A DNA stretch of 64,000 bases from assembly GCA_959601025.1 (NCBI GenBank), contig CAUGOD010000002.1:6173-70172 (forward strand). Direction: 5' to 3'. The notes under the pieces are model-generated. The model was not told the DNA's origin. It saw nothing but the letters and a program-made list of their open reading frames with translations, and did not search any database. This stretch comes from an uncultured Oscillospiraceae bacterium (lineage in GTDB: Bacteria; Bacillota; Clostridia; Oscillospirales; Acutalibacteraceae). Positions 9,217-25,384 of this stretch are shown here, piece by piece; position 1 is the first letter of the stretch, and each line of letters starts with the position of its first letter. The position numbers and the translations under genes were made by a program.

Positions 9217-9298
9217 CCGCTTTTCACACCTTTCTTGTGAAGCGGCCGGCCGCAGGCATACGGATACGCGCGGCCGGCCGGATGAGGGCTTATGGTAT

Positions 9299-10264
9299 TT
9301 ACTGCTCTTTATCGGAAGGATCGCTGTCCGCCGGCGGCTCATCCGAAGCGTCGGGAGCAGGCGCTTTCTTTTTGCGGTACAGGACGAAGCCGACGATGCC
9401 GCCGACGATCGCCAGCACCACAATGGTCCCGATTACGCCGCCCAGCACATACAGCCCCGCGTTGGCGGCGGGTGCGGGTTCCGTCGGCTGGGTGGACGGC
9501 GCGGTGGTGTTCGGGTTGGTTGACTCCGACGCCTTGGCGTCGGACGTGCTGGGCGTGTCGGAGCCGGAGGGGGCGGCCGCCGTGGTCGTGGTGGGTTTCT
9601 TTGTGGTGGTGGGGGCATGCTTCATAGCCTCGGCTTCGGTGCTGAGGTCGGTCGGGTCGTCGCCCTGGAAGAAGTAAATATTATCATACCACACCGACCC
9701 GGTCCGCTGGAAGGCCTTCGGCTGATCTTCGCCGAAAATCACTGTGGAAAACCCGCTGAAATAGGCGGCGGAGAAAAAGTCGAAGGTTTCATCCTCCACC
9801 CCGACCAGATCCTCAAAGCGAATGGTGTATTCACGGGGCTCCGGAGAAGCGTAGATAAACATATGGCCGCTGACGTAGTCAAAAGAGGGGCTGCAGCGGA
9901 TGGCCATCGGGCAGGTGGCTTTTACCGTGAACTTGATGCCGTCGCAGTTGCTCGGCAGCGCTTCGCTGAAATGCTCCTGATCCGGGTAGTGGATGATGGT
10001 GGCCCAGCCGGGCTTTACGTTGAGGTTATAGTCGGTGCGCAGGGAGTTTTTCCCTTCCAGAACGCTGTTTGTGTCCAGCTCCAGGGAGACGGCGTCGCAG
10101 GCCCGCTGCGCGCCCCAATAAAGGATGAAATCGGAGGTTTCGTTATAGCTTTCGAAATCCTCCTGCATCTTGAACACGGTGGAGCTGGCGGACACATTGG
10201 CCGTCAGTCCCAGGGAGAGCAGAAGCGCGGCGAGAAGGGATACGGCTTTTTTCGCGTATTTCAT
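9299..10264 (-). CDS. type-I membrane-anchored protein with CBM-like beta-sandwich module and Thr/Pro-rich stalk
   Basis: Signal peptide MKYAKKAVSLLAALLLSLGLTANVSA and perfect AAGGAG RBS. Domain FESYNETSDF…GKNSLRTDY…IKFTVKA…VWYDNIYFF. Linker TTTKKPTTTTAAAPSGSDTPSTS…, then TM helix LYVLGGVIGTIVVLAIVGGIVGFVLY and a basic/acidic cytoplasmic tail. Confidence 0.7.
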   Translation of the reverse strand: MKYAKKAVSLLAALLLSLGLTANVSASSTVFKMQEDFESYNETSDFILYWGAQRACDAVSLELDTNSVLEGKNSLRTDYNLNVKPGWATIIHYPDQEHFSEALPSNCDGIKFTVKATCPMAIRCSPSFDYVSGHMFIYASPEPREYTIRFEDLVGVEDETFDFFSAAYFSGFSTVIFGEDQPKAFQRTGSVWYDNIYFFQGDDPTDLSTEAEAMKHAPTTTKKPTTTTAAAPSGSDTPSTSDAKASESTNPNTTAPSTQPTEPAPAANAGLYVLGGVIGTIVVLAIVGGIVGFVLYRKKKAPAPDASDEPPADSDPSDKEQ

Positions 10265-10338: not shown

Positions 10339-11778
10339 TCAGCCGGTGATGGCGACGTCCTTCCAATGGTCCCGCAACGTGGCGTTCAGGGAATCAAACA
10401 GCTTGTCGACGGTGCTGCCGGGGGTGGACTGCCCGGTAAATATATTGCTGGCGATCGCATAGAGGCCCGGGTCGGTCCAGATAATGCCGGAATACTGATA
10501 GAGCTCGTATTTCTGGGCCTTGCGGGAGCGTTCCAGGAACGCGTTGTAGGAGGTTTCATCCGGAATCTTCAGCAGGTAGGTATCCTCAAATTTTTCCTCA
10601 AAGGAACGGGCGTCGCTGCGGTGGATCAGGTCGTCGATGAAAAGAAGCTGCTCCGCCTTATCCTTGTTGCAGGCGGGGATAAACCAATACCGGTAGTTCA
10701 TAGCGTAATCGGTCTGTCCGGAGGTGTTGGAGGGGCCGACCGGGAAGGTGATAATCCCGAAGTCATCCTTCATCCCGTTGGCGGAGGCCAGCGTCAGCAC
10801 CTCGTTGGTACCCAGCACAAAGGCGTATTTGCCGTCCACAAAATCGGACATGGTTTTCTGCCAGCCGCCCTCGCTGACGTTCGCCAGCTTGTCGACGTTG
10901 CACCAGCGGTACATGTATTCGAGAGCTTCGGTGGTTTTGCTGCTCTTCAGGTCCAGCTGGAACTGGTTTTTCTCATCCAGAGAAACTACGGTGCCGTCGT
11001 TGCCGTTGATGAGGGCGACCATCAGCTCATGGTTGGTCCAGGAGCCCAGGCCCCATTGGGTCACGGTGCCGTCGGGGTTGGTCTTCTTGCAGGCCTTGGC
11101 GTATTCCCCCAGCTTGTCAAAGGTCCATTCCCCTTTTTCCAGCAGGGTGTAAGGGTCCTCCAGATTGTTTTCCTGGAGGATGCGTTTATTGTAATACAGG
11201 CTGCAATAGACGCTGTAATCCTCGCCGTAGCCGAAGCCGTACTGGCCGTTATTTACATTGGAGTATTTCCGGATGTTCTGCTCGTATAGACTTTCGGTGA
11301 AATCAATGCCGAGCTTCTCGGCCGCCGGGGCAAGATCGGTCATGACGCCCGCCTTGAACCAGTCCGCGAAGTTCTCCTCCGGACACATCAGGATATCGCC
11401 GTAGGGCTTATTGGCCAGCAGGGAGGTCACCATGGCGTCGACGTAGTTGCCGCCGATCCCCTTGTCCCTGAAGGTGAAGCCATACTCCTCCTCCAGCTTT
11501 TTCAGCTGCTTGTAGCCCTCGTCCTCCGGATCGGGGTCTTCGACCTTCCAGGCGTAGACGCGGGTGACTTCCATCCCCCGCAGGCTTTCCAAAAACTCCT
11601 CCGAGACGTTTAGCTCCTTGGCGAAGCTGGAGGCGCCATCCCCACCGCCGCTGCTGTTGCCGGAGCCGCTTTGCGTACCGCCTTCCGAACAGGCCGTGAA
11701 GCCAAGCGCCAGAGCGCCTGCGAGCAACACGGCGGTGAATCTGCGTGCAAAACTTTTCATGCCTTTCTTGTCTTTCAT
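10339..11778 (-). CDS. ABC transporter substrate-binding lipoprotein (family-1 extracellular solute-binding protein, sugar type)
   Basis: Start MKDKKGMKSFARRFTAVLLAGALALGFTACSEGG (lipobox FTAC) with AGGAGG RBS. Overall SBP_bac_1-like composition. Confidence 0.85.
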   Translation of the reverse strand: MKDKKGMKSFARRFTAVLLAGALALGFTACSEGGTQSGSGNSSGGGDGASSFAKELNVSEEFLESLRGMEVTRVYAWKVEDPDPEDEGYKQLKKLEEEYGFTFRDKGIGGNYVDAMVTSLLANKPYGDILMCPEENFADWFKAGVMTDLAPAAEKLGIDFTESLYEQNIRKYSNVNNGQYGFGYGEDYSVYCSLYYNKRILQENNLEDPYTLLEKGEWTFDKLGEYAKACKKTNPDGTVTQWGLGSWTNHELMVALINGNDGTVVSLDEKNQFQLDLKSSKTTEALEYMYRWCNVDKLANVSEGGWQKTMSDFVDGKYAFVLGTNEVLTLASANGMKDDFGIITFPVGPSNTSGQTDYAMNYRYWFIPACNKDKAEQLLFIDDLIHRSDARSFEEKFEDTYLLKIPDETSYNAFLERSRKAQKYELYQYSGIIWTDPGLYAIASNIFTGQSTPGSTVDKLFDSLNATLRDHWKDVAITG

Positions 11779-11839: not shown

Positions 11840-12805
11840 TCAGCCGACGAGTCCGCTCCGCTCAATGCTTTGTACAAAAAACCGCTGCGCCACAATGTAG
11901 AGAAGAACTAGGGGGAAGATGACCAGTACGATACCGGCGTCCTGCAGCAGGGCGCCGGTGAGGACCATCGTGTCCCCGGCGGCGGTCAGGTTGGTAAAAG
12001 GATTCAGAAGGTTTCCGAAGGTGGAGGGGATAACGTTCATGCCGCTGCACAGCACGGGGGTGTAGATTTCATCCAGCCACTGCCAGACGAAGGAGAACAG
12101 GAACACCGTCACCATCATGGAGGTGGCGCCGGGGAGGATGATCCGCACCAGCGTTTTCAGCGGGCCCGCGCCGTCCACATAGGCGGCCTCCTCCAGCTCC
12201 TTGGGCACCCCGCGGAAATACTGGCGCATGATGAAGATGTACAGGCCGTTTTTCAGTCCCGTGCAGGTGCAGCCCAGCAGCACAAAGGGCCAATAGGTAT
12301 CCAGCAGCATCAGCGGCTCGCCGGTGATCGCCCGGATGATCCCGAAAATATCGAAGCTGCGGAATTGCAGAAAGTAGGGGGCCATCAGCACGTCCGGCGG
12401 AATCAGCATCACCAGCAGCACCGCGCCGAACAGCACGCCGTTCAGACGGAACCGGAACCGGGCGAAGCCGTAGGCCACCAGCGTGCAGGAGCCGGTCTGG
12501 ATGAGGGAAACCACCGCGACCATCGCCAGGGTGTTCCACAGGGAAGAGGGAAAGCCCAGCAGGTCGGCGGCATTGCCATAATGTTCCAGGGTGAAATGCT
12601 TCGGTATGTAATTGACGCTGCTGTCGTAGATATCGGCCACGCTCATCACGCTGGAGGTGAGCTGGGTGAGCAGGGGATACAGCACCACGAAGCACAGCCC
12701 GCCGATGAACAGGCCCCGCAGAAGGGAGATCATCCCCTGGAAGGCGCGCTTTTTCAGCTTGATTTTCCGGGAAGCCGTGATGGACAGGCTCATTCGAACA
12801 ACCAT
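11840..12805 (-). CDS. carbohydrate ABC transporter permease (MalG-like)
   Basis: Six-TM permease with the EAA-like loop (…GAGPLKTLVRIILPGA…). Confidence 0.85.
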   Translation of the reverse strand: MVVRMSLSITASRKIKLKKRAFQGMISLLRGLFIGGLCFVVLYPLLTQLTSSVMSVADIYDSSVNYIPKHFTLEHYGNAADLLGFPSSLWNTLAMVAVVSLIQTGSCTLVAYGFARFRFRLNGVLFGAVLLVMLIPPDVLMAPYFLQFRSFDIFGIIRAITGEPLMLLDTYWPFVLLGCTCTGLKNGLYIFIMRQYFRGVPKELEEAAYVDGAGPLKTLVRIILPGATSMMVTVFLFSFVWQWLDEIYTPVLCSGMNVIPSTFGNLLNPFTNLTAAGDTMVLTGALLQDAGIVLVIFPLVLLYIVAQRFFVQSIERSGLVG

Positions 12806-12836: not shown

Positions 12837-13730
12837 TCAGCGGTCCTGATAGAAGACGAAGCGGGAAACCACGGTGTATACCACCAGCAGGATGATCCCC
12901 ATGATCGCCATATAGCTCAAGGCCATGGCGGCGCCGACGCCGAACTTGATGTTCTCAAACATCGTGCTGTGGACGGTGGAGATAACAGGGTTGCTGACGT
13001 TGGTAAAGGAGTCGATCACGCTGTACACGATGCAGACCAGAATCAGGGGGCTGACCATGGGCAGGCAGATTTTCCAGAAAACCTCCCATTTGGTCGCGCC
13101 CTCGATATAGGACGCCTCGAAGATCGAGGGGGAGATGGACTGCAGGCCCGCCAGAAAGATGACGATCGGCACGGCGGACATGGCGGTGATATCCGCGATG
13201 CGGTTGACCGTGTCCGAAATGAAGCCGACCAGCGAGGTATTCATGCTCATGCTGTTCATCAGGTTGACGATGGCCCCGGAAAGGCCCGCGCCCGCGGCGG
13301 ATTCGGTGGCGGCGGCCAGCGTTTCCATGGTATAGCCGTCGGTCAGCTTCTGCACCATGCCGGAGGATACGATGACCGGCAGGAACAGCACCACCCGGGA
13401 AAAGGATCGCCCGATGAATTTGGTATTCAGCAGGCTGGCCACAAAAAACGCGAACAGCACGCAGATCGGCACGTTGATGGCCATATCCCGCAGGGAGAAG
13501 AGCAGATCCTCCCGGTAATTGGGGTCGACCAGAAATATCTGCCGGTAATTTTCCAGCCCGACGAAATCCAGCCGGTACCCGGACTCGGTGATGGACAGGT
13601 TGCAGAAGCTGAAGGAGACCGCGCGGCAAAAGGGGATCACGACGAAGAACAGCAGCCCGATCAGGAAAGGGAGGACAAACAGCATCCCCCACCGCCGCTG
13701 GCGGCGTTCCAGGGAAATCATGCGCTTCAT
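12837..13730 (-). CDS. sugar ABC transporter permease (MalF-like)
   Basis: MKRMISLERRQRRWGMLFVLPFLIGLLFFVVIPF… Typical N-terminus of CUT1 permeases. Confidence 0.85.
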   Translation of the reverse strand: MKRMISLERRQRRWGMLFVLPFLIGLLFFVVIPFCRAVSFSFCNLSITESGYRLDFVGLENYRQIFLVDPNYREDLLFSLRDMAINVPICVLFAFFVASLLNTKFIGRSFSRVVLFLPVIVSSGMVQKLTDGYTMETLAAATESAAGAGLSGAIVNLMNSMSMNTSLVGFISDTVNRIADITAMSAVPIVIFLAGLQSISPSIFEASYIEGATKWEVFWKICLPMVSPLILVCIVYSVIDSFTNVSNPVISTVHSTMFENIKFGVGAAMALSYMAIMGIILLVVYTVVSRFVFYQDR

Positions 13731-13736: not shown

Positions 13737-16268
13737 TCAGCTCCTTTCGCTTATGTATTGCTGGGCCGGGATGGTGCGGCCGTCCGCCAGCGTCACATCG
13801 AAACGGTTGTAGTTGATGAGAATACGGGTTCCGCCCGCGTAGGTGGTCCGGACGACGCCCTCCGCCAGCCGTTCATGGCCGGTAATGGGCTGTCCCCAGC
13901 AGCCGTCCAGGGCTTCGGAAAGCCAGGCGTAGTCGTCGGCGATTTTCTGCTCGAGGTAGCGGTACTGGATGGCGTAGAAATCGCTGAAATCGGTGTTTCG
14001 CAGCTCTTCCGCGTTTTCGGCGCAGAGGAGGTAATAGGGGGCCGCGCCGTTTTCCAGCAGCCGGAGATAATCGTTCCGGTCGGCAAAATCCAGATTGATC
14101 CGCCCGCCGGTATACCGTACATAGCCGCTGAGCACCATGGCGGCAAAGGGAACGCTGTAGTCGGTGACGTCGTAATTGCTGGAGCTCAGCGGCAGGGACA
14201 GGAGAGAATCCGCCTGTACGGCGAAGGGGGCGATGCCGGTGGAAAGGATCAGGTTGTCGGTCGATTCCCGCAGCGCGGCAACCTGTTCCTCCAGCCGGAT
14301 CAGGGAGGTCTGCCGCTCCACCTCCCGTTTTTCGTTGTAGTCGCTGTTGACCTCCCGTCCGACGCTCCGCAGGGAAAGGCCGGTCAGTCCGGTATCCCTG
14401 AGCAGCCCGGACAGGGAAGCAAAGCCGGTCTCAATCCCCGCGGAATTCAGGATATAGGCGGGCAGCGCTTCGGCGTCGGCGCCGAAATAGGCGCGGTCGG
14501 CGGGGTAATACGCCCCCTGCTTCCGGCTGAGAAGCCGGGCGATCTGCCGGTTTCCCAGCCCGTCGAACAGCCCTTTGTCGTACGCATACTGTATTTCGGC
14601 GTCCAGCGCGTAGGAGACGCCCTTTTCCGTGAGGTAGCCGGCCAGCTCGGTCAGGCCCTTTTTTCCGCCCAGCCGGCCGGAGACCTCCGCCTTGTTGAGA
14701 TAGCCCTGCCGGTAACCGCCGTTCAGGCAGCCGCTCAGAATGATCTGGAGATTCCCTATGCCCTTGCCGAGCAGGCTGTCGACCAGCGCGCGGCCGTCCT
14801 CAAAGGAGGTGAGGATGAGCTGACGGCGGACGTTGAAACCCAGCACGTTTTTCTGGATGTCGGCTTCCCCCAGAAGGTTAACGTACAGCGGCAGGCCGCC
14901 CTCGTCATCCAGAGGGGCGCGGCCGCCCAGCAGCAGCTCCCGGTACAGCCCGGCCATCCCGTTGTAGGAGGCGTCCTCCCCGGTCAGGAAGTGGTAGGCC
15001 ACCCGGAATTCGCCGTCATAGCCTTCGGCCTGGTGGGTGACGAAATAGGAATCGGTGTTTTCCGTGGTGGACAGGGTGGCGATCTTCGCCTGCTGCAGAA
15101 CCGTGAAGGAAGCGCAGACCGAGGGAGGAACCGTATCGTCCCCGGGGGAGGCGTTCACCGTTGCCAGCGCGTCCCCGTCCTCGATCACCGCCAAATAGCC
15201 GTTGCCGTTATCCAGCGCGCAGCCGAAAATCGGAAAGATCGCCGTCTGGTCCCGGAAGGTGGTCTCGCCGGCGGCGATGGAACGGTCGGCGCCGTAGATT
15301 CCCACCGCGTACTCCTGCAGGTTGTTTTTCCCGTTGTAAAAGTTCATGATCGAGCCGGAGCCGTCCGGCAGCAGGAAATACCCGTCGGTTTCCCGGTCCG
15401 CCCGGCCGAAGTTGGGAAGGAGGCGGAGGGTTTCCAGCGGGAACTCCTCCGTCCAGGCGATTTCCTCGCAGGGAACGCGCACCCGCAGGGCGTCGCCCTC
15501 CAGCTCCAGGTAGAGGGAAACGCTGAACTGCGGCTCGGAGGCGGCGGCGAGCTCGCCGTTTTCCGCGTCGAGCGTCCGGTCCGCCTCGGTGTAGCCGGCG
15601 TTTCGCAGCGCGCTGTCCAGCTTGACTTTCACGCTCTTCTGCATGTTGGGGGTGAGGACATAGATGGGGCCGTCCTCCGCCAGCGGATATTCGGCGGCGG
15701 TCTTTTTTCGTTCCTCCCCCTCGTAATTGTTCAGGTCGATTTTGGAATACAGCTGCCGCATAAACCGCTGGTCGCCGGATTCCATCGCATCGTAAAATTT
15801 GAGGTAGCGCTCCTCGGTCAGAATAGCCGGCGCAAAGTACTGGGGTTCGATCTCCCCGAGGGAATACCGGAGCTTTACGCCGTTATCCAGCGGAATGATC
15901 TCATACTGTCCTTTTTTCACCGAATCGGTGTAGGAATTCATATACTGCGCCACACTGCCGGTCGCCATATAGGCCAGGGTAAAGGCCGCGTTATAGGAAT
16001 CCTGCTCGCCGTTTCCCGTTGTGGAGGACCAGACCCGCCCGGTCTCCTTGACCGTGACCCGGAAAGCGGTGGTATCCGGGTTTACCTCCAGCATGAGCGC
16101 GTCGGTTTCCGCCATTTTCTGAAAGTCGGGGGAAGCGACGTCGTTTTCCCTGGTTCCCTCAGCGATCAGGTCCAGCTCCCGCGGCGCCGCGGCCGTGCCC
16201 GAACAGCCGGTCAGCAGCAGGCCAGCGCAGAGCAGCAGGACCAGAGAAAGTGTCCCGAACCTTTTCAT
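13737..16268 (-). CDS. large lipoprotein (843 aa) of unknown function; paralog of 61773..>64000 (resembles proteins I recall as DUF5696, unverified)
   Basis: Start MKRFGTLSLVLLLCAGLLLTGCSG (lipobox) with RBS GGGAGAAAGG. Shares blocks with the cluster B paralog (YFLLPDGSGSIMNF vs YFLVPDGSGALIEF; FPIFG vs PVFGMKKG). Lies 25 nt downstream of the NHL/Yip1 gene. Confidence 0.7.
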   Translation of the reverse strand: MKRFGTLSLVLLLCAGLLLTGCSGTAAAPRELDLIAEGTRENDVASPDFQKMAETDALMLEVNPDTTAFRVTVKETGRVWSSTTGNGEQDSYNAAFTLAYMATGSVAQYMNSYTDSVKKGQYEIIPLDNGVKLRYSLGEIEPQYFAPAILTEERYLKFYDAMESGDQRFMRQLYSKIDLNNYEGEERKKTAAEYPLAEDGPIYVLTPNMQKSVKVKLDSALRNAGYTEADRTLDAENGELAAASEPQFSVSLYLELEGDALRVRVPCEEIAWTEEFPLETLRLLPNFGRADRETDGYFLLPDGSGSIMNFYNGKNNLQEYAVGIYGADRSIAAGETTFRDQTAIFPIFGCALDNGNGYLAVIEDGDALATVNASPGDDTVPPSVCASFTVLQQAKIATLSTTENTDSYFVTHQAEGYDGEFRVAYHFLTGEDASYNGMAGLYRELLLGGRAPLDDEGGLPLYVNLLGEADIQKNVLGFNVRRQLILTSFEDGRALVDSLLGKGIGNLQIILSGCLNGGYRQGYLNKAEVSGRLGGKKGLTELAGYLTEKGVSYALDAEIQYAYDKGLFDGLGNRQIARLLSRKQGAYYPADRAYFGADAEALPAYILNSAGIETGFASLSGLLRDTGLTGLSLRSVGREVNSDYNEKREVERQTSLIRLEEQVAALRESTDNLILSTGIAPFAVQADSLLSLPLSSSNYDVTDYSVPFAAMVLSGYVRYTGGRINLDFADRNDYLRLLENGAAPYYLLCAENAEELRNTDFSDFYAIQYRYLEQKIADDYAWLSEALDGCWGQPITGHERLAEGVVRTTYAGGTRILINYNRFDVTLADGRTIPAQQYISERS

Positions 16269-16293
16269 ACCGTCATCCTTTCTCCCGTCTTGC

Positions 16294-18426
16294 TTACAGG
16301 CGCATGGAAATTTCCGTTTGCAGGTCGCTGATGAAGGAAACAAACTGATTGGCCAGCGCAAAGGCCAGCACCGCCAAAAACAGGACGATCACCATCACCA
16401 GCAGGGTGATGAGAATGACCAGCAGGGTCTTCCCCATCGTGTAATCGTGAATCTGCCGGTTGGCGCAGATGACCAGCGCGATCGTCCAGCAGAAGGCCAG
16501 CGTCACCAGGAAGAGGAAGAAGTCGCCTTCGTCCTCCACCAGCACGTTGCTGAACAGGGTGGCGATCGGAAGAAGGATCACCAGCGGGGTCAGCGCGTAG
16601 GAGGAGGCCATAAAGATATCCCGGAAGCTCCCTTCGCCGTTCATCAGGGAGGTGACGCACCAGTTGCAGGCGCAGAACAGAAGCAGCGGGCCGGCCACCT
16701 TCATCGCTTCCAGCAGAAGGTTCACCTCGTCCGCGCTGGAGGAGCCGAAGGGGAAGCCGATGAACCGGCTGTAAACCGCCATAGCCGCGCAGGCCAGGGC
16801 GAGCAGCGTGACCGCCGCCTTCATGCTCCCCCGTTTCTCGCATTTCAGGTCCCAAAACCCGTCGAAGGGGTGGAAGATGACATACCGGGAATACCGGAGG
16901 GTACCGCGGTAGCTGTCGGCGGCGACCGGCCGAGCGGGATGGCGCTTCCGCCATCGGGAGAATACGAACCCGACCGCGCAGAGGACGACAAGCCCGGTCA
17001 TCACATAGGGGAAAACGTCCCCCATGGTTTCCATCCGGACCATTTTGAAGGCGGAAGAATAGTTGGAGCGGTCCTCCGCCAGCCGGAAATAGCGCAGGGC
17101 CTCCGAAAAGTTCTTGTTCCGGTAAGCGGCCTTTCCCAGCCCGCTGAGGGCGCTCGCGCTGTTGATATTCTGCCGGGCGATTTCCGCCCACAGCGCCGCC
17201 TCCTCATCGTACAGGCTCTGGTAGTGGCAGCGGGCGGTATCGTACAGCTTCTGCCCGTAATCACTCATGGCGTAGACCGTCAGGCTCATCTTGCCGGAAT
17301 CCAGCACATAGAACCGCCCGTCCCGGTATTCCAGGGCGGTGGGAACCTGCAGGCCGCCCTTGACGCTGCCCGGCGAGCCGAATTCAAACAGCAGCTCCCC
17401 GTCGGCGTTGTATACGAAGGCGCGGCACCGGTTGGAATCCAGCACGGCGTACATGCCGTATCCCATGGTGCACACATCCACCAGCGAGGACGCGCCGCGG
17501 TAGGAGCCGGTCGCCATCACCTTGGGGTCGCCGTACGGCTTGACCGCGCCGGTCGTCCGCAGAATATCGTTTCCCTTGGCGTTCAGCTTCCGTACAGGGC
17601 TGGCGGTTCCCGCCGAATATTCGGCGGGGGTGTAGCTGTTGCTGGTGACATAGATGAAATCGTCCTCGTCGATGTTGATATTGTTGTACTCCGTCGGGAC
17701 GAAGGAGGCCATCCGTTCGATCATCTCGTCGGTGGAGATCATCCGCAGGAAATAATCCCACGGGGTCACGGTCACGGCGTTTGCGCCGAGGCAGCCGACG
17801 AAATCGCCGTTTTTATCCATCTCGATCAGGCCCATGTTGAAGCCGGAGGAGGTGACAAAAATCCGCCCGGCCGTGTCCACCAGCACCTTGGTGGGCTTAT
17901 AGTCAAAGGTATCCGGCAGCGAGCTGGATTCCGGCGCGGCCAGAATACGGAGCAGCCGGTCTTCCCGGTCAAGCACCACGATCCGGGCGTTGTTGGTGTC
18001 CGCCACATAGATGCCGGTTTCGTGGATATAGATGCCCTGCGGCTTCTGAAAGGTGAGGGCTTCCTCCCCGTTCGAAACCGAAGCGATTTCCCGCACGAAT
18101 CTCCATTCCCGATCCACGATCACGATACGGTTGTTGTCGGTATCGACGATATAGATGTCGCCGTTTTCATCCACAAAGAGGTCGGAGGGATTCGCCAGGT
18201 TGGCCGTCCCCAGGGCGACGCCGGTCAGCACCACGTCCGCCGTCACGGCGTCCGGGGCGGCGACCACATTGCCGTCGTTGTCGTAGGTGTAGCTGTAGAA
18301 GGCCCCTTCCGCCGCGGCGGGCAGCGCAGCCGGCAGCAGGAAAAGAGCGGCGAGAAGAGAGGTAAGAGAGGTAAACAGTCCAATCAAGGGGGCTTTTCGT
18401 TTCAATCCAATTCCCTCCGCCCGCAT
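16294..18426 (-). CDS. NHL-repeat beta-propeller / TPR-like / Yip1-domain multipass membrane protein
   Basis: Signal peptide …LLAALFLLPAALPAAAEG. NHL-type repeats (DIYIVDTDNNRIVIVD, GIYVADTNNARIVVLD, GRFYVLDSGKMSLTVY). Helical region (…YFRLAEDRSNYSSAFK). C-terminal ~250 aa with 5+ TM helices typical of Yip1/DUF1282 proteins. Its ATG overlaps the upstream permease stop as TAATG (18424-18428); an alternative TTG at codon 8 has a GGAGGGA RBS. Confidence 0.75.
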   Translation of the reverse strand: MRAEGIGLKRKAPLIGLFTSLTSLLAALFLLPAALPAAAEGAFYSYTYDNDGNVVAAPDAVTADVVLTGVALGTANLANPSDLFVDENGDIYIVDTDNNRIVIVDREWRFVREIASVSNGEEALTFQKPQGIYIHETGIYVADTNNARIVVLDREDRLLRILAAPESSSLPDTFDYKPTKVLVDTAGRIFVTSSGFNMGLIEMDKNGDFVGCLGANAVTVTPWDYFLRMISTDEMIERMASFVPTEYNNINIDEDDFIYVTSNSYTPAEYSAGTASPVRKLNAKGNDILRTTGAVKPYGDPKVMATGSYRGASSLVDVCTMGYGMYAVLDSNRCRAFVYNADGELLFEFGSPGSVKGGLQVPTALEYRDGRFYVLDSGKMSLTVYAMSDYGQKLYDTARCHYQSLYDEEAALWAEIARQNINSASALSGLGKAAYRNKNFSEALRYFRLAEDRSNYSSAFKMVRMETMGDVFPYVMTGLVVLCAVGFVFSRWRKRHPARPVAADSYRGTLRYSRYVIFHPFDGFWDLKCEKRGSMKAAVTLLALACAAMAVYSRFIGFPFGSSSADEVNLLLEAMKVAGPLLLFCACNWCVTSLMNGEGSFRDIFMASSYALTPLVILLPIATLFSNVLVEDEGDFFLFLVTLAFCWTIALVICANRQIHDYTMGKTLLVILITLLVMVIVLFLAVLAFALANQFVSFISDLQTEISMRL

Positions 18427-19334
18427 TATTCTTTAATCCCCGAGGAGGCCATTGTCTGCAGAATGTTGCTCTGTGCCAGCACAAACACGGCGATCGGCGG
18501 GATAATCAGGAGCAGCGTAACGGCGGAACCGGCTCCGGTGCGGGCGACGCCGCCGTTCATGATCTGATTCAACGCATAGTTGAGGGGCTTGAGCTCCTCG
18601 GAAAAGATATAGGTACCGCCCGTCGCGCCCCACATGCTCTGAAAGCCGAAGATAATCAGGGTCAGCCAGGCCGGCTTGACCAGCGGCATGGCAATCTGGA
18701 AGAAGATGCGCAGCTCCGACGCGCCGTCGATCCGCGCGGCCTCCAGCAGGCTGTCGGGGATGTTGCACATGAACTGCTTCATCAGGAACAGCCCGAGCGA
18801 GGAGGCGATGGCCGGCACGATCAGGGAAGCCAAAGTATTGACCCAGCCGAGCCGGCTCATGATGATGTAGCTGGGGATGGCGGTAACCGTCGGGGAGAAC
18901 ATCAGGGACAGCACCACCACCTTAAAAATGAATTCCCGTCCCGGGAACCGCCGCTTTTCCAGCACATAGGCGGCCAGAGAGGCGACGATCAGCTGGCCGG
19001 CGACGGTCAGCGCGGTGATCAGCAGGGTGTTGAAGAAGTAGCGGGACATGGGCACCCAGGATTCGCCCATCAGCACCGACAGGTTTTTGAAGTTGTTCAG
19101 GGTCGGGTTGCGGACGAAGAACTGGGGCGGGAACATGAACAGCTCATCCAGCGGCTTGAAAGCGCTGTTGGCGATATAGACCAGAGGGAGGGCCATGAAT
19201 GCGCCCACCAGGCAGAGCATCAGGAAATTCCCGACCCGCCCGGCACGGCTCCGTCCCACCCGATAACCGCCCAGGCGGTGCTTTTTCCGGCGGACGGTCA
19301 TGTCCCGCCGCTTTTTTGCGGCTTCGGTTGTCAT
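18426..19334 (-). CDS. carbohydrate ABC transporter permease (MalG-like)
   Basis: Start MTTEAAKKRR with GGGAGG RBS. Permease signature (…AARIDGASELRIFFQIAMPLVKPA…). Confidence 0.85.
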   Translation of the reverse strand: MTTEAAKKRRDMTVRRKKHRLGGYRVGRSRAGRVGNFLMLCLVGAFMALPLVYIANSAFKPLDELFMFPPQFFVRNPTLNNFKNLSVLMGESWVPMSRYFFNTLLITALTVAGQLIVASLAAYVLEKRRFPGREFIFKVVVLSLMFSPTVTAIPSYIIMSRLGWVNTLASLIVPAIASSLGLFLMKQFMCNIPDSLLEAARIDGASELRIFFQIAMPLVKPAWLTLIIFGFQSMWGATGGTYIFSEELKPLNYALNQIMNGGVARTGAGSAVTLLLIIPPIAVFVLAQSNILQTMASSGIKE

Positions 19335-19427: not shown

Positions 19428-20375
19428 CTATACCCCTACTTTCCGCAGGAGTTTCTGCACCAGCGAGTTGCTGCCCACCATCATGATGAACAGAATGGTC
19501 GCAATGGCGCAGGCGTAGCCCATCTCAAAACGGACGCCGCCGTAATCGTTCATGTGGTTGAGGATGGTATGGGTGGCGTAATCGGTGCTGGGGCTGCCGA
19601 ACATCACATCGTGCATGGCGCCGCAGGAGAAGGCCGAGGAAATGGACATAACCGCGCCGAACATCAGCTGGGGACGCATCATCGGCAGGGTGATGAACCA
19701 CAGCTCCTGCCAGCGGTTGCGGATTCCCTCCACATACCCCGCCTCGTACATCGAGCGGTCCACCGTCTGGAAGCCCGCGACGAAGGAAAGAAAACCGGAG
19801 CCGAGGCTCATCCAAAGGGTAACCACGATGGCGACTCCCATCATGCAGTTGGTGTCGGTCAGCCACTGGATCGGCTCATTAAGGAAGCCCAGATTCATCA
19901 GCACGCCGTTCAGATAGCCGTAGGCATCGCCGCTGAACAGCACCTTCCAGATCATGTACGCACCGCCGCAGATGGAGGGAGCGTACATAACGGTGACCAT
20001 CAGCGCCCGCAGGGGGGCGGACAGCTCGTTGATGCACCAAGCCATCAGCAGGGAAAGCAGATACCCCGCCGGTCCGGTGATCAGCGCGATCAGGAGGGTG
20101 TTTTTCAGCGCGGTAGTGAACACGCTGTCCGAAACGAAGAGGTTCAGGTAGTTCTGCCAGCCAATGAACTGGGGCGGCTGCAGCACGTTGTAATAGGTGA
20201 AGCTGTAGTAAATGGACATCAGAACCGGCGCGATGACGAACAGCGAGAAGATCGCCAGAAAGGGCAGCAGGAACACATAGCAATCCCAGTTTTTCGCCGC
20301 TTCCTTCCGCTTTTCGGCCAGGGAAGCCCGGCCCTTCGACGCACCGGTGGTTCCCGCCGTTCTTTTGTGCAACAT
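19428..20375 (-). CDS. sugar ABC transporter permease (MalF-like)
   Basis: Start MLHKRTAG… with RBS GAAAGGAAAGG. The track ORF is extended 85 codons upstream by high GC. Confidence 0.85.
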   Translation of the reverse strand: MLHKRTAGTTGASKGRASLAEKRKEAAKNWDCYVFLLPFLAIFSLFVIAPVLMSIYYSFTYYNVLQPPQFIGWQNYLNLFVSDSVFTTALKNTLLIALITGPAGYLLSLLMAWCINELSAPLRALMVTVMYAPSICGGAYMIWKVLFSGDAYGYLNGVLMNLGFLNEPIQWLTDTNCMMGVAIVVTLWMSLGSGFLSFVAGFQTVDRSMYEAGYVEGIRNRWQELWFITLPMMRPQLMFGAVMSISSAFSCGAMHDVMFGSPSTDYATHTILNHMNDYGGVRFEMGYACAIATILFIMMVGSNSLVQKLLRKVGV

Positions 20376-20413: not shown

Positions 20414-23299
20414 TCAGGATAAGTGGAATTCCTTGCGTTTGTTGGTGATTTCCTCGTTGATGATATACACGTAATCCAGCAGGGTGTCCTTCGCGTCCTT
20501 GTCGTGCAGCACCACCTGCCGGAAGGCGTTGGTGATATGGCGGGAGAGGTAATAGCTGCCGGGCACCTGTTCGATCCCCCGCGCGCTCTCCAGCTGGGCG
20601 CTCAGCTCCGCGTATTCCGCCGTGGACCACGGCAGGCGGGAGAAGGCTTCCAGATTGGCGGCGGGATACCGGGCGGATTCACCGAGAATGCTTTCCATCT
20701 CGGTGCCGTACCGGGTCTGGGTGTCGGCGGAGGTCCACCAGCGCAGGAACGACCAGGCCGCCTCCTTGTCCCCGGCGCCGTCCATGATTACGCAGGCGGT
20801 GGAGGACAGCACGGCGCTGTTGTCGATCGTCCCGTCGTCCCGTTCGGCGCCGGGGACGGGGGTGAAGGCCCAAAGGCCCTTGATTTCAGGGGCGGACACC
20901 TGCAGGGAGTTGTATAGCGAATAATCGGAAATGGCGATCGGAACCTCGCCCACCCGGAAGCGGTTGAGGATATCCATCTCCTGTGATACCTTGTAGTTCA
21001 CATAAAAGTTGGTCCACTGCTTGAAGGCGGAAACCGCCGCGTCCGAATCCAGCACGGTGGCGCTCTGCGCCTCGTTGTAAATGCTGCCGCCGTTCTGCAT
21101 CAGGAGCAGATAGAAGATGTTGACGTCCACCACATTGGACAGGCCGAATTCCATGTTCTGCTTATTGAGCACCGAGATGGCCGAGATGACCTCGTTCCAG
21201 GTGCGGGGGACGGACAGCCCCAGCTCCGCCAGGATATCGGCGCGGTAAAACAGCATGGGGAAGCTTTGGGTTTCCGGCAGTGCATAGACGCCGCCGGTCA
21301 GGCGATAGGGGACAAAGAGCTCGGGGTTGAACCACGCCTGCACCTCGCGGAAATCCTCAAACTGGCTGAGGTCCGCCAGCGCGCCGCGCAGGGCGTAGTT
21401 AACCGGGTCGCCCATGCCGACTCCCAGCGCCACGTCCGGGCCGATGCCCGCGATGGTCGCGGACAGCAGCGTATCCGCCGCCACCAGCTGCAGATCGGCC
21501 GAAATGCCGGTCTGCGGGACGAAGGAATCGTTGATGATAGACTTGAGTGTCTGGCACTGGTCGCGGCCGGAGGAAATCCATACGGTCACGCCGCGGGAGC
21601 CGGTCTCCGTGGACATGTTGCCGATAGCGTTGTAATCCACGATGAAGGAATCCAGGAAATTGCGGACGTGGAAGACCAGCATGTCGAAAAATCCGGCGTT
21701 GGGCTTTTTCAGGGTCTGGTCGGGGGAATAGACGGTTATGTAGTCGATCTCCAGCGGCTGCTCATGGTTGGTATTCAGCCAGGTGCCGAGGGAGCCGATA
21801 TTGGTCTTAAAGTAGCTGAATTTCCGGGCGATCTTATCCGGGTTTTCATACATGCTTTTCAGCTGCCGGGCGACGGTTTTCAGCACGCCGATATTGTCGT
21901 TGCTGGTCTCGCCGGTCAGCTCCTGTAGGGAGGCGATCAGCCCCATCAGCCGGTCGTATTGGGTATGGAGGTTTTCGATGGAGTCGGGAATCAGGTCATC
22001 CAGCTTGTAATCCCGGTAAAGGTCCGGGCTGGAGCCGGTAATAATCAAAATCTCCCGGTAGATCCGGTTCAGCTGGAGAAGGACGTCCTCCGCCTCCCGG
22101 AGCAGCTCGCCCATCTCTCCGAGCGCCACTTCCATACGCAGCTCGTGCGTCCCTTCCTCCAGATAGAAGAGGTAGGGCTCCTCCCCGCCGAGCACGACGC
22201 TCTGCCAGTCGGCGCCGTAGTGGAAGGAAACCGTGTCCATTTCCGCAAAAGGAACCTCGCCGTCGATCAGGATGCGGCGGCTGGAGACGATGCCGCTGGT
22301 GGTGTTCTGCCGGACCTTGAGCGCCAGACGGTAAAGCCCGCTTTTCGGAACCGTGAAGGTCCAGGTCAGAAATTCCCCGGGATAGGACCATCGGCTGCCG
22401 CCGATGGTGTTCAGTCTGGTCAGGGACGGTGTATACGGCTCGGTCGCGGGGGAGGTGCGGTCGGTCATGGGATACAGGGTCGCGGAGGATTTATACACGG
22501 CGTCCTCTCCCTGGATGGTGATGCATTCTCCCTGCGTTTCAGCCAGCCCCGCCGCTGTGTAATCCTCGGCCGTCTTTTCGTAAGAGGGCGGGCTTTCGGG
22601 CGGTGCAAAGGTCAGGGAATGAAGAAGCATCGGCTCGTTGACCGCTTCCAGTGCGATTGTGTTTTCCCCGGCTTCCAGATAAAAGGTCAGCGCGCCGGTG
22701 TAATAGCCGTTGCTGTCCCGGCAATACCGTTCCAGCCAGACGGGCGTTTCCTTCTGCGAAGGGCGAATGTCGTTGCCGTACACGTCGGTCTGGATTTCCT
22801 CCACCGCGTTTCCCCACACCCGGGGAAACAGCAGGTTCCCCGCCTCCTCATAAGGCAGGCTGCCATTCACGGTGAGCGAACGTTCCAGCTCCACGCCCTT
22901 TCCCTCCGCCGGGTAATACCGCAGCTTGAGGGTGTACAGGCCGGCGGTCTCCGCCGCGACATTCCACGCGACGGTGGTTCCCTCGGGCATATACAGGCTG
23001 TCGCCCTCCTGCCCAAAAGCGTCGGCCTGTACCTCGACGCCCTCGCCTTCCGCCGTGTAGTCCTCCGCTGCCGGGATGGTCAGGACGCCGGTCCCGATTC
23101 GGCCGGCATAGGTTTCCAGATATTCCTCGTAGGAGGGAACGGCGGAGTTGTTAGCGACGCCTGTTGTTTCGGCGGCGAAAACCGCCGCGGCTTCGTCTTC
23201 ATCCGCGGGCGCGGCCGACGCCGGCAGGACGGACAGCGCCAAAGCCGCCGCCAGAAGGAGGCTGATCCCCCGGTTTTTCCCTTCCGATGACAATCGCAT
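20414..23299 (-). CDS. giant extracellular solute-binding protein (961 aa): tandem CBM-like beta-sandwich modules + helical linker + family-1 SBP domain
   Basis: Signal peptide MRLSSEGKNRGISLLLAAALALSVLPASAA. Two ~150-aa modules (…YTLKLRYYPAEGKG… and …LYRLALKVRQNTTSG…). C-terminal half has SBP_bac_1-like motifs (…LFYRADILAELGLSVPRTWNEV…). Paralog of 54638..57562. Confidence 0.8.
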   Translation of the reverse strand: MRLSSEGKNRGISLLLAAALALSVLPASAAPADEDEAAAVFAAETTGVANNSAVPSYEEYLETYAGRIGTGVLTIPAAEDYTAEGEGVEVQADAFGQEGDSLYMPEGTTVAWNVAAETAGLYTLKLRYYPAEGKGVELERSLTVNGSLPYEEAGNLLFPRVWGNAVEEIQTDVYGNDIRPSQKETPVWLERYCRDSNGYYTGALTFYLEAGENTIALEAVNEPMLLHSLTFAPPESPPSYEKTAEDYTAAGLAETQGECITIQGEDAVYKSSATLYPMTDRTSPATEPYTPSLTRLNTIGGSRWSYPGEFLTWTFTVPKSGLYRLALKVRQNTTSGIVSSRRILIDGEVPFAEMDTVSFHYGADWQSVVLGGEEPYLFYLEEGTHELRMEVALGEMGELLREAEDVLLQLNRIYREILIITGSSPDLYRDYKLDDLIPDSIENLHTQYDRLMGLIASLQELTGETSNDNIGVLKTVARQLKSMYENPDKIARKFSYFKTNIGSLGTWLNTNHEQPLEIDYITVYSPDQTLKKPNAGFFDMLVFHVRNFLDSFIVDYNAIGNMSTETGSRGVTVWISSGRDQCQTLKSIINDSFVPQTGISADLQLVAADTLLSATIAGIGPDVALGVGMGDPVNYALRGALADLSQFEDFREVQAWFNPELFVPYRLTGGVYALPETQSFPMLFYRADILAELGLSVPRTWNEVISAISVLNKQNMEFGLSNVVDVNIFYLLLMQNGGSIYNEAQSATVLDSDAAVSAFKQWTNFYVNYKVSQEMDILNRFRVGEVPIAISDYSLYNSLQVSAPEIKGLWAFTPVPGAERDDGTIDNSAVLSSTACVIMDGAGDKEAAWSFLRWWTSADTQTRYGTEMESILGESARYPAANLEAFSRLPWSTAEYAELSAQLESARGIEQVPGSYYLSRHITNAFRQVVLHDKDAKDTLLDYVYIINEEITNKRKEFHLS

Positions 23300-23412: not shown

Positions 23413-25038
23413 TTAGCGAACCCGGATTTCCACCGGGCCGTTGTGGAGGATAGCCAGCTCGTAGCCGTCCGGACCCCGCCGGATGGTGACCTGTCCGCCG
23501 TCCACCTGTACGGAGTCGGCTCCGGCGATGGTCAGCCGGGTTTCCCGGTTTTCCCCGATAAAGGGGCAGGCGTCGTCGAGAATATAGCTGTCCAGATAGG
23601 AGCATCCGCTGAAATGCGGGTTGTTAAAGACCCCCTTGGCGGAATCGGAGCGGAAATTGTTCAGGTGGAGCCGCAGGCCGTCCGCCCGCGCGAAGCCCAC
23701 CATATAGGTGTGGGGAGCGAAGACGCCGGACAGGACCCATTTCCCGACCGGAACCTCCCGGAAATACTGGGTGGCGTCCCGGTTTTCGAGCGTGTGGGAA
23801 AACAGCCACCGTTCCTCCACATGGAATACGCAGGCATCGGTGTCCAGTTGTTCGGGATACCGCTCGTCAAACCATGCCTTTTTATCGGCCGGGACGGTTC
23901 GGCTGTCCAGCAGGGCGGGGAAGCGGGCTTCCGCTTCCGCGCGGGCGAAGCCGGGGACGACCGGGATGACGAAATACCGGCCGGAGCGCTGGAGGACGCT
24001 GCCGCTGGAATTGTCCTTTTTCACCTTTTCCAGCGCTTCCCGTGGGGCGTACAGATCGAGGAAGGGTTCCTCGGACGGCTCGCGGAACAAGGGGGAATCC
24101 CAGTCGTCCAGTATGTAGGCGGCCCTGATTTTCTTGAGCGCCTGTTCCCGGGTGGAGATCATCCCCTCCTCCAGTGCCATCCGGTGGAGAGGGAGGAGCA
24201 CCCGGCGGAACTGGGGCGTGAGGGTATTTTTATAGGCGATCATGCGGCCTTCGACTTCAAAGCTGACGATGCTTGCGCCCTGCAGAAGGGCGGGGGCCAG
24301 AATCTGGCCCATCAGCGCTTCCGGACAACCGAACTCCATCAGGGTGAGCCCAAGATTGAGGTAGAAATCCCCGAAGCGCTGCCGGAGCGCGTCGTGATAG
24401 GTGCGCCCCTCGCTTCCGCCGTAAAGGAAGGTGTAGCCCTGCTCATACCACCAGAAGTCCTCCACGTTGATGCCCCAGGCGGGAGACAGCCCCGTCAGCC
24501 AGTAGCCCATCGCCAGGCTGCGGGTCAGGTGGTACTGTCCCCATCCGTTCACCTTATCCTGGAAGATCACCGTGCCGGGATGCGCCCGCAGGAAAGCGCC
24601 GAAACGGGGATCTTCCGCCGCTTTGGCGAAAACGTGCTTCCGGTCCGGATAGCCCATGTCCTCCCACAGGAGATAGACGCCGTAACGGCTGCAGATTTCC
24701 GCCATGGCCATCAGGCGGTCCATCTGGATATCGTTGAGATCGAAGCAGGACATTTCCACTAGGGAAACCGCCACGATATTCTCATAATCGGCGAGCAGGC
24801 GTTCCAGCCGGTCGGGAGCGACCACCCAGTCCCGTAGAAAGCTGTCCCAGTATTCCGTCTGCAGCACCACCTGAATACCGCGCTCCCGGAAATCCGTCAG
24901 GCGTTCCATATGGTCGTCGTGCGCCGCGTCCACAGCCATGGAGGCGTGGGGACGCAGGTCCTCGGGAATCACATCGTAACTGCTGCATTTAAAATTGAAT
25001 AGCGGATGACGGCTGGAAATTTCTCTTCGTTGTTGCAT
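23413..25038 (-). CDS. cytoplasmic TIM-barrel glycoside-hydrolase-like protein (family unassigned); paralog of 7255..9216
   Basis: Start MQQRREISSRH… with RBS AGGACAGAGGGG. No signal peptide. Shares conserved blocks with the 7255 lipoprotein. Confidence 0.65.
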   Translation of the reverse strand: MQQRREISSRHPLFNFKCSSYDVIPEDLRPHASMAVDAAHDDHMERLTDFRERGIQVVLQTEYWDSFLRDWVVAPDRLERLLADYENIVAVSLVEMSCFDLNDIQMDRLMAMAEICSRYGVYLLWEDMGYPDRKHVFAKAAEDPRFGAFLRAHPGTVIFQDKVNGWGQYHLTRSLAMGYWLTGLSPAWGINVEDFWWYEQGYTFLYGGSEGRTYHDALRQRFGDFYLNLGLTLMEFGCPEALMGQILAPALLQGASIVSFEVEGRMIAYKNTLTPQFRRVLLPLHRMALEEGMISTREQALKKIRAAYILDDWDSPLFREPSEEPFLDLYAPREALEKVKKDNSSGSVLQRSGRYFVIPVVPGFARAEAEARFPALLDSRTVPADKKAWFDERYPEQLDTDACVFHVEERWLFSHTLENRDATQYFREVPVGKWVLSGVFAPHTYMVGFARADGLRLHLNNFRSDSAKGVFNNPHFSGCSYLDSYILDDACPFIGENRETRLTIAGADSVQVDGGQVTIRRGPDGYELAILHNGPVEIRVR

Positions 25039-25384
25039 GCGGCGTTCCCCTCTGTCCTTGAAAATAGGTGGCTCCGCCCCGGTCGGACGACACGGCTGCG
25101 GACTTTGCAGGCTGGAATTCCTTGTCAGAATTGCACTTAAAACATGTATTGGTTTGGTTCCTTTTGTATTGTAGCACAACAGGAAATGTTGGTATATCAC
25201 GGAACATGCGGTATGAGTAACAAAACGTGCTGTATTTGGTATGCAAATACTGGATGGTAAAAAGAGGGAGAGCGACCGGCGGCTCCCGTTTGCTCCGGGA
25301 CCGCTGACCGCCCTCCCTCTGTTGGCAGAAACTGTCGGCTGAAAGGTAAAAAAGTGAAGGTTCAGGATGAAAGGGATAAAGGGG
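25039..25384 (-). promoter_or_regulatory. AT-rich upstream region of cluster A (putative promoter/operator region)
   Basis: Local GC drop (…tgtattggtttggttccttttgtattgtagcacaacaggaaatgttggtatatcacggaacatgcggtatgagtaacaaaacgtgctgtatttggtatgcaaatactgg…) immediately upstream of the first gene of an ~18-kb co-directional array. Confidence 0.35.

Follow-up and report, generated by a model that had tools for sequence, protein, structure and literature searches.

A fixed seven-gene core of importer-type genes surrounds an NHL/TPR/Yip1 membrane protein in Bacillota

The NHL-TPR-Yip1 gene of the window (the whole 64,000-nucleotide stretch of an uncultured Oscillospiraceae genome analysed here) belongs to a fixed seven-gene core that encodes, in order: a giant CBM-bearing solute-binding protein (SBP), two permeases, the NHL/TPR/Yip1 protein, a DUF5696 lipoprotein and two further permeases. 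This core and the origin of the window protein by fusion are the new results. No description of the cassette or of the protein architecture was found in the literature searched, in keeping with the initial annotation, which did not know the architecture to be characterised. That annotation missed the location of the gene between two permease pairs, the presence of DUF5696 always next to it, and the fusion of genes that are separate elsewhere.

Gene order was counted in genome loci obtained from a genome scan with a narrow alignment. The triad of giant SBP and two permeases was located directly upstream of the NHL/TPR/Yip1 gene in 30 of the 31 genome loci, and DUF5696 followed by two permeases directly downstream of it in 36/36. 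The core order was also present in eight further contexts (including Paenibacillus sp. JDR-2, P. cellulosilyticus and Butyrivibrio fibrisolvens D1), and was kept around relatives at 26% identity and around the most distant DUF5696 relatives. The hosts span Oscillospirales, Lachnospirales and Paenibacillaceae, and the cassette occurs commonly among Firmicutes of the gut and of soil. Importer genes lie beside the family in essentially every locus examined, so that the co-occurrence with ABC genes expected by the initial annotation holds in other genomes. The existence of hundreds of homologs with the same architecture (about 105 clusters share that of the cluster A protein in the database search), combined with the invariant gene order, excludes chance. 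It is thus extremely improbable that a generic Yip1 membrane protein sits in the operon with no functional link to it: its position is retained in all these loci but one, and in all eight further contexts, across three lineages; the gaps to its neighbours are tight or overlapping (medians of 13.5 nt on the permease 2 side and 16 nt on the DUF5696 side); and its divergence runs in step with that of the other proteins of the cassette.

The gene itself (16294..18426, minus strand, as are all the cluster A features below) is an ATG open reading frame of 710 amino acids (stop codon 16294-16296) with Pfam matches to NHL and Yip1, whose product is 100% identical to the database protein P0001. Its start overlaps the stop of permease 2 as TAATG (18424..18428; the forward strand reads CATTA), an overlap already annotated and here read directly from the sequence. 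The protein is composed of a cleavable signal peptide, a six-bladed NHL propeller, two TPR-like hairpins, a transmembrane helix (TM1), a basic cytosolic linker and a five-TM Yip1 domain; Pfam, hydropathy and the AF2 model agree on the order initially proposed (signal peptide, NHL, TPR-like stretch, C-terminal Yip1), except that about five blades had been described and the propeller has six. The signal peptide (residues 1-39, 18310..18426) was recognised by hydropathy, and has a K/R-rich n-region, an h-region at 13-31 and a cleavage site at A37-A38-A39, before E40, without lipobox cysteine; in the homologs (41 loci) the AxA site immediately precedes a conserved SYxYD motif. The propeller (residues 44-388, 17263..18297) is predicted to be extracellular, and carries a helical insert peculiar to the family at 222-239 and a loop at 283-314. 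The match to NHL (PF01436) reaches 52 bits in this copy (cutoff 20, E 4.8e-14), and the model closes as a six-bladed propeller, both as expected for NHL-repeat propellers.

An extracellular propeller anchored in the membrane might be catalytic (lyase, lactonase or esterase type), acting on the substrate, or on a decoration of it, before DUF5696 and the importers. We consider this improbable: the closest structural matches of the propeller are non-catalytic NHL domains; the conserved acidic residues correspond mostly to the Asp with a structural role in each NHL repeat; and neither a conserved His nor another metal-ligand set was evident among the invariant columns. Membership of the SGL-type lactonases (PF08450, SMP-30/gluconolactonase/LRE-like) was rejected, the scores falling under the Pfam cutoff (17.3 bits vs 26.3 in the paralog, copy B, and no match in copy A).

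In the AF2 model, the stretch following the propeller (residues 389-452, 17071..17262) folds into four helices between 389 and 450; it matches CTPR chains in the PDB profile search. The TPR models of Pfam did not reach their gathering scores (17-18 bits vs cutoffs of 27-33 in copy A; 26.4 vs 27 in copy B), and "TPR-like" is therefore the right term. Next come a juxtamembrane helix and TM1 (residues 453-489, 16960..17070), in which a conserved NYS..F..R motif precedes the membrane anchor (TM1 at 471-489), and the cytosolic linker (residues 490-532, 16831..16959), with 11 K+R among its 43 residues and a conserved HPFDGFWDLK motif. The Yip1 domain (residues 533-710, 16297..16830; Pfam match 515-684) scores 59.5 bits for PF04893, where the cutoff is 28.6 (E 4.9e-16), and spans positions 2-172 of the 173-position model, with 66.5 bits in the paralog; the HMM check suggested with the initial annotation thus gave scores above the curated cutoffs for both NHL and Yip1. 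Five hydrophobic helices are predicted at 533-686, after the K/R-rich loop, in agreement with the AF2 model helices, and the predicted arrangement of five TM helices behind a cytosolic N-terminal segment is that of the Yip1 family. Given the signal peptide, TM1 and the K/R-rich loop, hydropathy and charge place the propeller outside the cell and the Yip1 domain in the membrane; this predicted topology, with which the AF2 model is consistent, is the extracytoplasmic one initially put forward.

The linker is also the point at which the gene is split in other genomes. In several of them, Paenibacillus sp. JDR-2 included, the NHL/TPR region and Yip1 are encoded by two neighbouring genes; the split falls exactly in the cytosolic linker, and the NHL/TPR protein stays anchored by TM1 at its C-terminus. 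What are two partners there, a bitopic surface protein with NHL and TPR and a Yip1 membrane protein, are thus fused in the window protein, and this natural fusion implies that both parts act as a complex. Conservation is even across the propeller, the TPR-like region and Yip1, with invariant residues in the propeller, and its level lies between that of the permeases and that of DUF5696. The similar conservation of all the cassette proteins singles out no partner.

The CAZymes beside the cassette vary: GH98 in the window, GH10 in JDR-2, GH76 in locus L044 and GH43 in Butyrivibrio. Since conservation is even despite these varying neighbours, a constant protein partner fits better than a variable glycan ligand. 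The same observation bears on the proposal of the initial annotation that the propeller captures surface glycans, binding a poly- or oligosaccharide and passing it to the SBPs, with Yip1 as a mere anchor. Such a role would resemble that of the auxiliary binding lipoproteins with NHL/beta-propellers in Bacteroides PULs (for example BT_3476, PDB 3tc9). These are lipid-anchored on the outer membrane beside SusC/D, whereas the window protein is integral to the cytoplasmic membrane, lies beside ABC importers and belongs to monoderm Bacillota (identity about 10%). Glycan capture is unlikely and somewhat disfavoured: across cassettes with different CAZymes, propeller and Yip1 domain are equally conserved, contrary to what a substrate-specific binder would lead one to expect; the adjoining giant SBP has CBM35-like modules of its own; and a conserved five-helix Yip1 domain far exceeds the needs of an anchor, TM1 alone anchoring the propeller in the split forms.

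The partners in cluster A are those of the proposed dual sugar importer. The giant SBP (961 amino acids, 20414..23299; Pfam, PDB search and signal analysis) consists of an N-terminal region of about 560 amino acids with weak CBM35-like modules and a C-terminal half that is a CUT1 SBP, matching Lin1841 in the PDB (2e-15 with the single sequence, 5e-30 with the profile). It lacks a lipobox, and most of its orthologs have an AxA-type signal, also without lipobox. It might conceivably be anchorless and tethered by the propeller; the N-terminus of the Paenibacillus sp. JDR-2 protein, however, is probably an uncleaved membrane anchor, and the tether idea was downgraded to one possibility. Permease 1 (MalF/UgpA-like, about 315 amino acids, 19428..20375; NCBIfam UgpA/GlcT-like) and permease 2 (MalG/UgpE-like, about 302 amino acids, 18426..19334; NCBIfam UgpE-like) are BPD_transp_1 proteins whose starts were refined. 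Permeases 3 (12837..13730, position kept in 36/36 loci) and 4 (11840..12805, position conserved) form the second importer pair, likewise with BPD_transp_1 domains. An SBP lipoprotein of ordinary size (SBP2, 10339..11778, SBP_bac_1 in Pfam, start refined) is an accessory cassette part whose position differs among genomes, and about 20 of 22 orthologs have a lipobox. The cluster is flanked by two GH98-like genes, one upstream (23413..25200, Glyco_hydro_98M/C in Pfam) and one downstream (7255..9423, Glyco_hydro_98M in Pfam, 1.3e-30). A promoter and terminator scan detected promoters no better than in shuffled sequences and no convincing internal terminator.

The SBP_bac_1/8 and BPD_transp_1 domains are those of CUT1 importers, defined by a family-1 SBP and two BPD_transp_1 permeases with an ATPase in cis or shared. 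The likeness to MalEFGK2, MsmEFGK and UgpABCE lies in the family-1 SBPs and in the MalF/MalG-like permeases flanking the window gene. The ATPase of Firmicutes CUT1 systems is usually encoded elsewhere; no ATPase gene adjoins either of the two clusters of the window, and P. cellulosilyticus has a UgpC/MsmX-type ATPase gene within the operon, directly ahead of the giant SBP. We know of no characterised CUT1 system with a Yip1 subunit, an SBP of about 960 amino acids bearing CBM-like modules or two pairs of permeases in a single fixed operon, and none with any of these features was found in the literature searched.

The DUF5696 lipoprotein (843 amino acids, 13737..16268, lipobox LLTGC) starts 25 nt past the NHL-Yip1 stop and matches PF18952 with an E-value of 4.6e-150. 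It models as a GH129/GH101-like glycosidase fold: the AF2 model (pLDDT 87.8) retrieves 5opq (3e-30) and 5wzn (2e-25) with Foldseek, at only 13% identity. The candidate catalytic acids are mostly conserved (D556, D or E in 32 of 36; D643, 29 D and 6 N), and both are present in the two DUF5696 copies of the window.

There is precedent for Yip1 proteins beside ABC transporters. YknW of Bacillus, which the initial annotation had correctly named as accompanying YknXYZ, is a Yip1-family protein of the YknWXYZ operon that is reported to modulate YknXYZ assembly (PMC4887032). Like the window protein, YknW (B. subtilis/amyloliquefaciens) is polytopic and encoded in an ABC transporter operon. It is, however, small and Yip1-only, and its partners are the MacB-type exporter YknYZ and the membrane-fusion protein YknX, involved in peptide-toxin resistance, whereas the Yip1 domain of the window is fused or adjacent to NHL and TPR and is accompanied by importer permeases, SBPs and a glycosidase-like lipoprotein. 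No MacB/FtsX or membrane-fusion protein genes were found among the partner genes, and the window gene does not fall in the YknW-type arrangement of a Yip1 protein encoded with such an exporter and a membrane-fusion protein. Eukaryotic YIPF (Yip1/Yif1) proteins share the Pfam domain and the layout predicted for the window Yip1, a cytosolic N-terminus followed by five TM helices; they function in ER-Golgi trafficking with Rab GTPases, a context the window protein does not have.

For the propeller, the closest known systems include the eukaryotic TRIM-NHL domains and the NHL domain of Mycobacterium tuberculosis PknD (PDB 1rwi), an extracellular sensor coupled to a cytoplasmic kinase. By analogy with PknD, the window propeller could sense a ligand, with Yip1 gating the transporters or signalling to adjacent AraC or two-component regulators. 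This is quite improbable: the window protein has Yip1 in place of a kinase and no cytoplasmic output domain, only the 43-residue linker; it is encoded within a transport operon, between permease genes, a place typical of a subunit; and the cassettes of loci L046 and L047 have no neighbouring regulator.

On the basis of the gene neighbourhood, the fusion and the analogy with YknW, we give a nearly even chance to the NHL-TPR-Yip1 protein being a membrane organiser that links extracellular parts of the cassette to the ABC translocators. The seven genes together would constitute a Bacillota apparatus for dual, binding-protein-dependent import of sugars, in which the Yip1 domain would pack against the membrane-spanning domains of the permeases in the manner of YknW with YknYZ, and the ectodomain of propeller and TPR would hold constant partners (the giant SBP and/or the DUF5696 enzyme) at the translocators. 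Trimming of surface glycans would thereby be coupled to uptake, the protein acting as an organiser and not as a specificity determinant. Several points were counted against this organiser role: the YknW partner is a MacB-type exporter, another class of ABC transporter; NHL propellers also occur as enzymes and ligand sensors; the idea of a tethered giant SBP is weak; at locus L018 the permeases are set apart from the NHL-Yip1 gene by about 6 kb that other genes occupy; and conservation does not point to one partner. More tentatively, the core may be an undescribed glycan capture-and-import machine of Gram-positives, whose Yip1-anchored propeller/TPR subunit bridges the two ABC translocons, the giant CBM-bearing SBP and, in DUF5696, a new GH129-like family of glycosidases.

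An SBP, two permeases and an ATPase are regarded as all that a binding-protein-dependent sugar importer requires. The genes analysed here add a further membrane subunit, in about 680 cluster representatives (Yip1 module, E<=1e-30, clusters at 50% identity), located between permease pairs and beside an uncharacterised glycosidase-like family. If this subunit is an obligatory organiser, the cassette would be a new modular glycan-foraging unit of gut Oscillospiraceae and Lachnospiraceae and of soil Paenibacillus, reused with GH98, GH10, GH76 and GH43; bacterial Yip1 function would extend past the single case of YknW; and DUF5696 would stand out as a probable new family of glycoside hydrolases. 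If the capture-and-import machine is real, it would be the monoderm counterpart of the Sus-like outer-membrane complexes, and bacterial Yip1 proteins would have a general part in organising ABC transporter complexes, for import and export alike. The role is testable in cultured hosts of the cassette (B. fibrisolvens D1, with pNP243 WAA20_RS20525/20530; Paenibacillus sp. JDR-2; P. cellulosilyticus). The JDR-2 cassette is absent from the xylan-induced transporters listed in PMC4765114, whose genome-wide table was covered to about Pjdr2_0900.

The window carries a second cluster of this kind, cluster B, on the plus strand. Its NHL-TPR-Yip1 gene (700 amino acids, 59569..61671), initially annotated as a paralog in the same position, has indeed the same Pfam domains and the same neighbours as copy A, and the two proteins are 31% identical over 682 residues (E 3e-115). 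It is preceded by a giant SBP (54629-57562) and two permeases (57616-58557 and 58623-59480; 54629..59480 in all, Pfam), an AraC regulator (53532-54557, Pfam) preceding the giant SBP. It is followed by a DUF5696 paralog with an N-terminal TM anchor (61773..64000), an open frame truncated at the window edge, with 28% identity to its cluster A counterpart (E 7e-60). The upstream permease and the NHL-Yip1 gene of cluster B are separated by an 88-nt spacer, with no overlap.

The ORF at 16294..18426(-) is a real gene, despite the numerous spurious overlapping ORFs called in the window (G+C about 60%): its 710-aa product is 100% identical to one database protein, and about 105 clusters (90% identity) match it in length and domain content. 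The NHL and Yip1 domains proposed in the initial annotation both exceeded their Pfam cutoffs (NHL, 52 bits, cutoff 20; Yip1, residues 515-684, nearly the full model, 59.5 bits, cutoff 28.6), and by sequence the product is a bona fide member of both families; the TPR matches were sub-threshold and failed the curated cutoffs. The TAATG in which the upstream permease stop overlaps the ATG of this gene (NHL-TPR-Yip1) was read directly on the minus strand (18424-18428). The paralog claimed for the same position in the second importer array, cluster B (59569..61671(+)), was borne out by Pfam (a result identical in kind), by alignment (31% identity over 682 residues, E 3e-115) and by gene order; an 88-nt spacer, with no overlap, separates it from its upstream permease.

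Cluster A is a tight array, all on the minus strand: a GH98-like gene (Glyco_hydro_98M/C; 23413-25200); a 961-aa solute-binding protein (the giant SBP; 20414-23299); a MalF-like (19428-20375) and a MalG-like permease (18426-19334); the NHL-TPR-Yip1 gene; 25 nt downstream, the glycosidase-like lipoprotein DUF5696 (13737-16268; PF18952, E 4.6e-150; lipobox LLTGC); a second permease pair (12837-13730 and 11840-12805); and an ordinary SBP lipoprotein (SBP2; 10339-11778). Downstream lies a second GH98-like gene (7255-9423(-); Glyco_hydro_98M, E 1.3e-30), and the bracketing of the cluster by two such genes is shared with the closest related loci (L001, L003, L004). Cluster B has the same layout (AraC, giant SBP at 54629-57562(+), permease, permease, NHL-TPR-Yip1, DUF5696 at 61773-64000(+)), the window end falling inside its DUF5696 gene. 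The genomes nearest to the window are uncultured Ruminococcaceae/Oscillospiraceae MAGs.

The ORFs of 41 genome loci were searched with the window proteins. The giant SBP-permease-permease genes lie immediately upstream of the NHL-TPR-Yip1 gene in 30/31 loci with sufficient flank, and DUF5696-permease-permease immediately downstream in 36/36; two apparent upstream misses were stop-to-stop ORF artefacts, the genes being present in the window-protein search. The sole locus with the permease pair separated from the NHL-Yip1 gene is that of Candidatus Avimonas caecicola (L018), where about 6.3 kb (3668-9929) holds several secreted or lipoprotein-like ORFs. The core order is kept around a 26%-identity relative (adjoined by GH76 genes), a 1020-aa split variant and the most distant DUF5696 relatives sampled. 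The gene belongs to a fixed seven-gene core, and its proposed ABC importer operon setting holds as far as these distant relatives; chance adjacency to the importer genes is excluded by this invariant synteny. The median spacer measures 13.5 nt on the upstream side of the gene and 16 nt on its downstream side, and the gene is directly predicted to belong to one closely packed operon. The seven-gene import cassette is widespread and uncharacterised, and larger than first described, and we are highly confident that the NHL-TPR-Yip1 protein is one of its subunits.

In two of the distant genomes, L046 (GCA_012837425.1) and L047 (GCA_965338575.1), at about 2400-16400, the neighbours of the core are housekeeping loci (nifU/mnmA, and either alaS or the ATP synthase operon), without other CAZymes and with a larger DUF5696 (1270-1440 aa); since a second SBP is absent, one giant SBP appears to be common to the two permease pairs. 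Cultured carriers include Paenibacillus sp. JDR-2 (GH10 genes beside the cassette), Butyrivibrio fibrisolvens D1 (on plasmid pNP243, beside GH43 and two-component-system genes) and P. cellulosilyticus (L050, plasmid NZ_CP054609.1), whose cassette is the only one seen with an ABC ATPase in cis (UgpC/MsmX-type, 5888-6997, immediately 5' of the giant SBP). Downstream in L050 are several flavin oxidoreductases of the LLM class and more SBPs.

The signal peptide noted initially is supported by hydropathy and charge (K/R-rich start, hydrophobic 13-31, A37-A38-A39/E40) and lacks a lipobox Cys; in homologs from the 41 loci an AxA site falls immediately N-terminal to a conserved SYxYD motif. In the AlphaFold2 model (32 homologs as input, pLDDT 83.6, pTM 0.72) beta-strands span residues 46-387, residues 389-450 form four helices, TM1 (471-489) lies within a single long helix (453-495), and the C-terminal part consists of five long helices. 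The 43-residue loop after TM1 carries 11 K+R and two short helices. The positive-inside rule directly predicts that TM1 runs inward, with the propeller and TPR-like hairpins outside the cell, as first proposed, and the Yip1 N-terminus cytoplasmic, an orientation that agrees with the accepted YIPF topology. The Yip1 module had no match among solved structures. A PknD-like sensor role is argued against by the lack of an output domain in this protein and by the absence of regulators from some cassettes.

NHL/TPR (~490 aa) and Yip1 (~205-240 aa) are separate, overlapping genes in JDR-2, B. fibrisolvens, L045 and L048, the split falling exactly within the cytosolic linker: the JDR-2 NHL/TPR protein ends in a TM1 equivalent followed by KYRKWKGGKK, and its Yip1 protein starts with the conserved cytosolic HPFNGFWELKYE motif. 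This Rosetta-stone relation implies that a bitopic propeller protein and a Yip1 protein function together; the window protein is the fused form of this two-protein membrane module. At E<=1e-30 a TM1 + Yip1 profile matched 680 representatives of 50%-identity clusters, a number that rose to 1853 with the limit at E<=1e-3; among the best 150 matches, 117 were full-length fusions (at least 600 aa) and the remainder Yip1-only genes (205-240 aa) or fragments.

The DUF5696 model (pLDDT 87.8, pTM 0.85) is predicted with high confidence to have a GH129/GH101/GH36/GH31-like fold: the top Foldseek match was a GH129 3,6-anhydro-D-galactosidase (5opq, E 3e-30), the Bifidobacterium alpha-GalNAc-ase NagBb (GH129) scored E 2e-25, and GH101, GH36 and GH31 ranked lower. 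Two barrel carboxylates (D556, D643) are conserved in most orthologs and present in both window copies; DUF5696 probably represents a glycoside hydrolase family that has gone unrecognised. The GH98-like pair and this GH129-like protein together give a hint that cluster A acts on a host glycan or a complex xylan. DUF5696 is the fastest-evolving protein of the cassette (0.52 bits per residue; NHL-Yip1 protein 0.83, giant SBP 0.91, permeases 1.3-1.5). An invariant LPDGSG motif (300-305) marks its N-terminal domain. The C-terminal half of the giant SBP is a CUT1 binding protein (best match, the Listeria sophoro-oligosaccharide binder Lin1841), and its N-terminal ~560 residues gave weak CBM35-like matches in 11/22 orthologs and Golvesin_C in 9/22. 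Weak CBM6 matches and a possible coiled-coil (about profile position 430-490) were also seen in this extension. The giant SBP has an AxA-type signal and, in almost all orthologs, no clear lipobox, the JDR-2 ortholog having by appearance an N-terminal membrane anchor; SBP2 and DUF5696 carry a lipobox in nearly every locus.

Glycan capture by the propeller, the role suggested initially, is supported by its predicted outside location and by an analogue, Bacteroides BT_3476. A protein partner is nevertheless the favoured ligand of the ectodomain, because conservation is even over propeller, TPR and Yip1 although the neighbouring CAZymes vary (GH98, GH10, GH76, GH43), and because the giant SBP has its own CBM-like modules. 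Tentatively, and with slightly less than even confidence, we infer a structural subunit organising the import apparatus (a scaffold), in which the Yip1 domain would contact the permease transmembrane domains and the ectodomain of propeller and TPR would serve as a docking site for constant partners outside the cell. To our knowledge, YknW is the only characterised bacterial Yip1 protein. The precedent named in the initial annotation was confirmed: YknW modulates assembly of the ABC transporter YknXYZ (PMC4887032). By analogy, the NHL-TPR-Yip1 protein may resemble YknW most in its working; however, YknW is partnered by a fusion protein and an exporter of the MacB type, whereas here it is a type I importer, and the protein is not a YknW-system member. 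What is new is a putative Yip1 accessory subunit that bears a propeller and goes with a sugar importer; the overall reading of a real gene joining both domains within an importer operon is upheld. No paper on DUF5696, PF18952 or NHL + Yip1 in transport or glycan loci was found among 7.7 million PMC papers and bioRxiv, and the RefSeq product names go no further than 'YIP1 family protein', 'NHL repeat-containing protein' and 'DUF5696 domain-containing protein'.

In the metagenomic cassette L045, the downstream pair has a second permease (17392-19908) of 838 aa, with BPD_transp_1 at 697-827 only and no confident Pfam match in its N-terminal extension (~690 residues). A 1037-aa ORF at 4034-7147(-) in the window (AraC-type HTH at 212-288, weak GDPD-like match at 695-786) is either an unusually long AraC-family protein or an ORF-calling merger of two genes. 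Between the clusters, 47295-50147(+) encodes an LPXTG-anchored surface protein of 950 aa that has a metallophosphoesterase domain as well as fn3 and Laminin_G_3, evidence that fits a sortase-bearing monoderm host.
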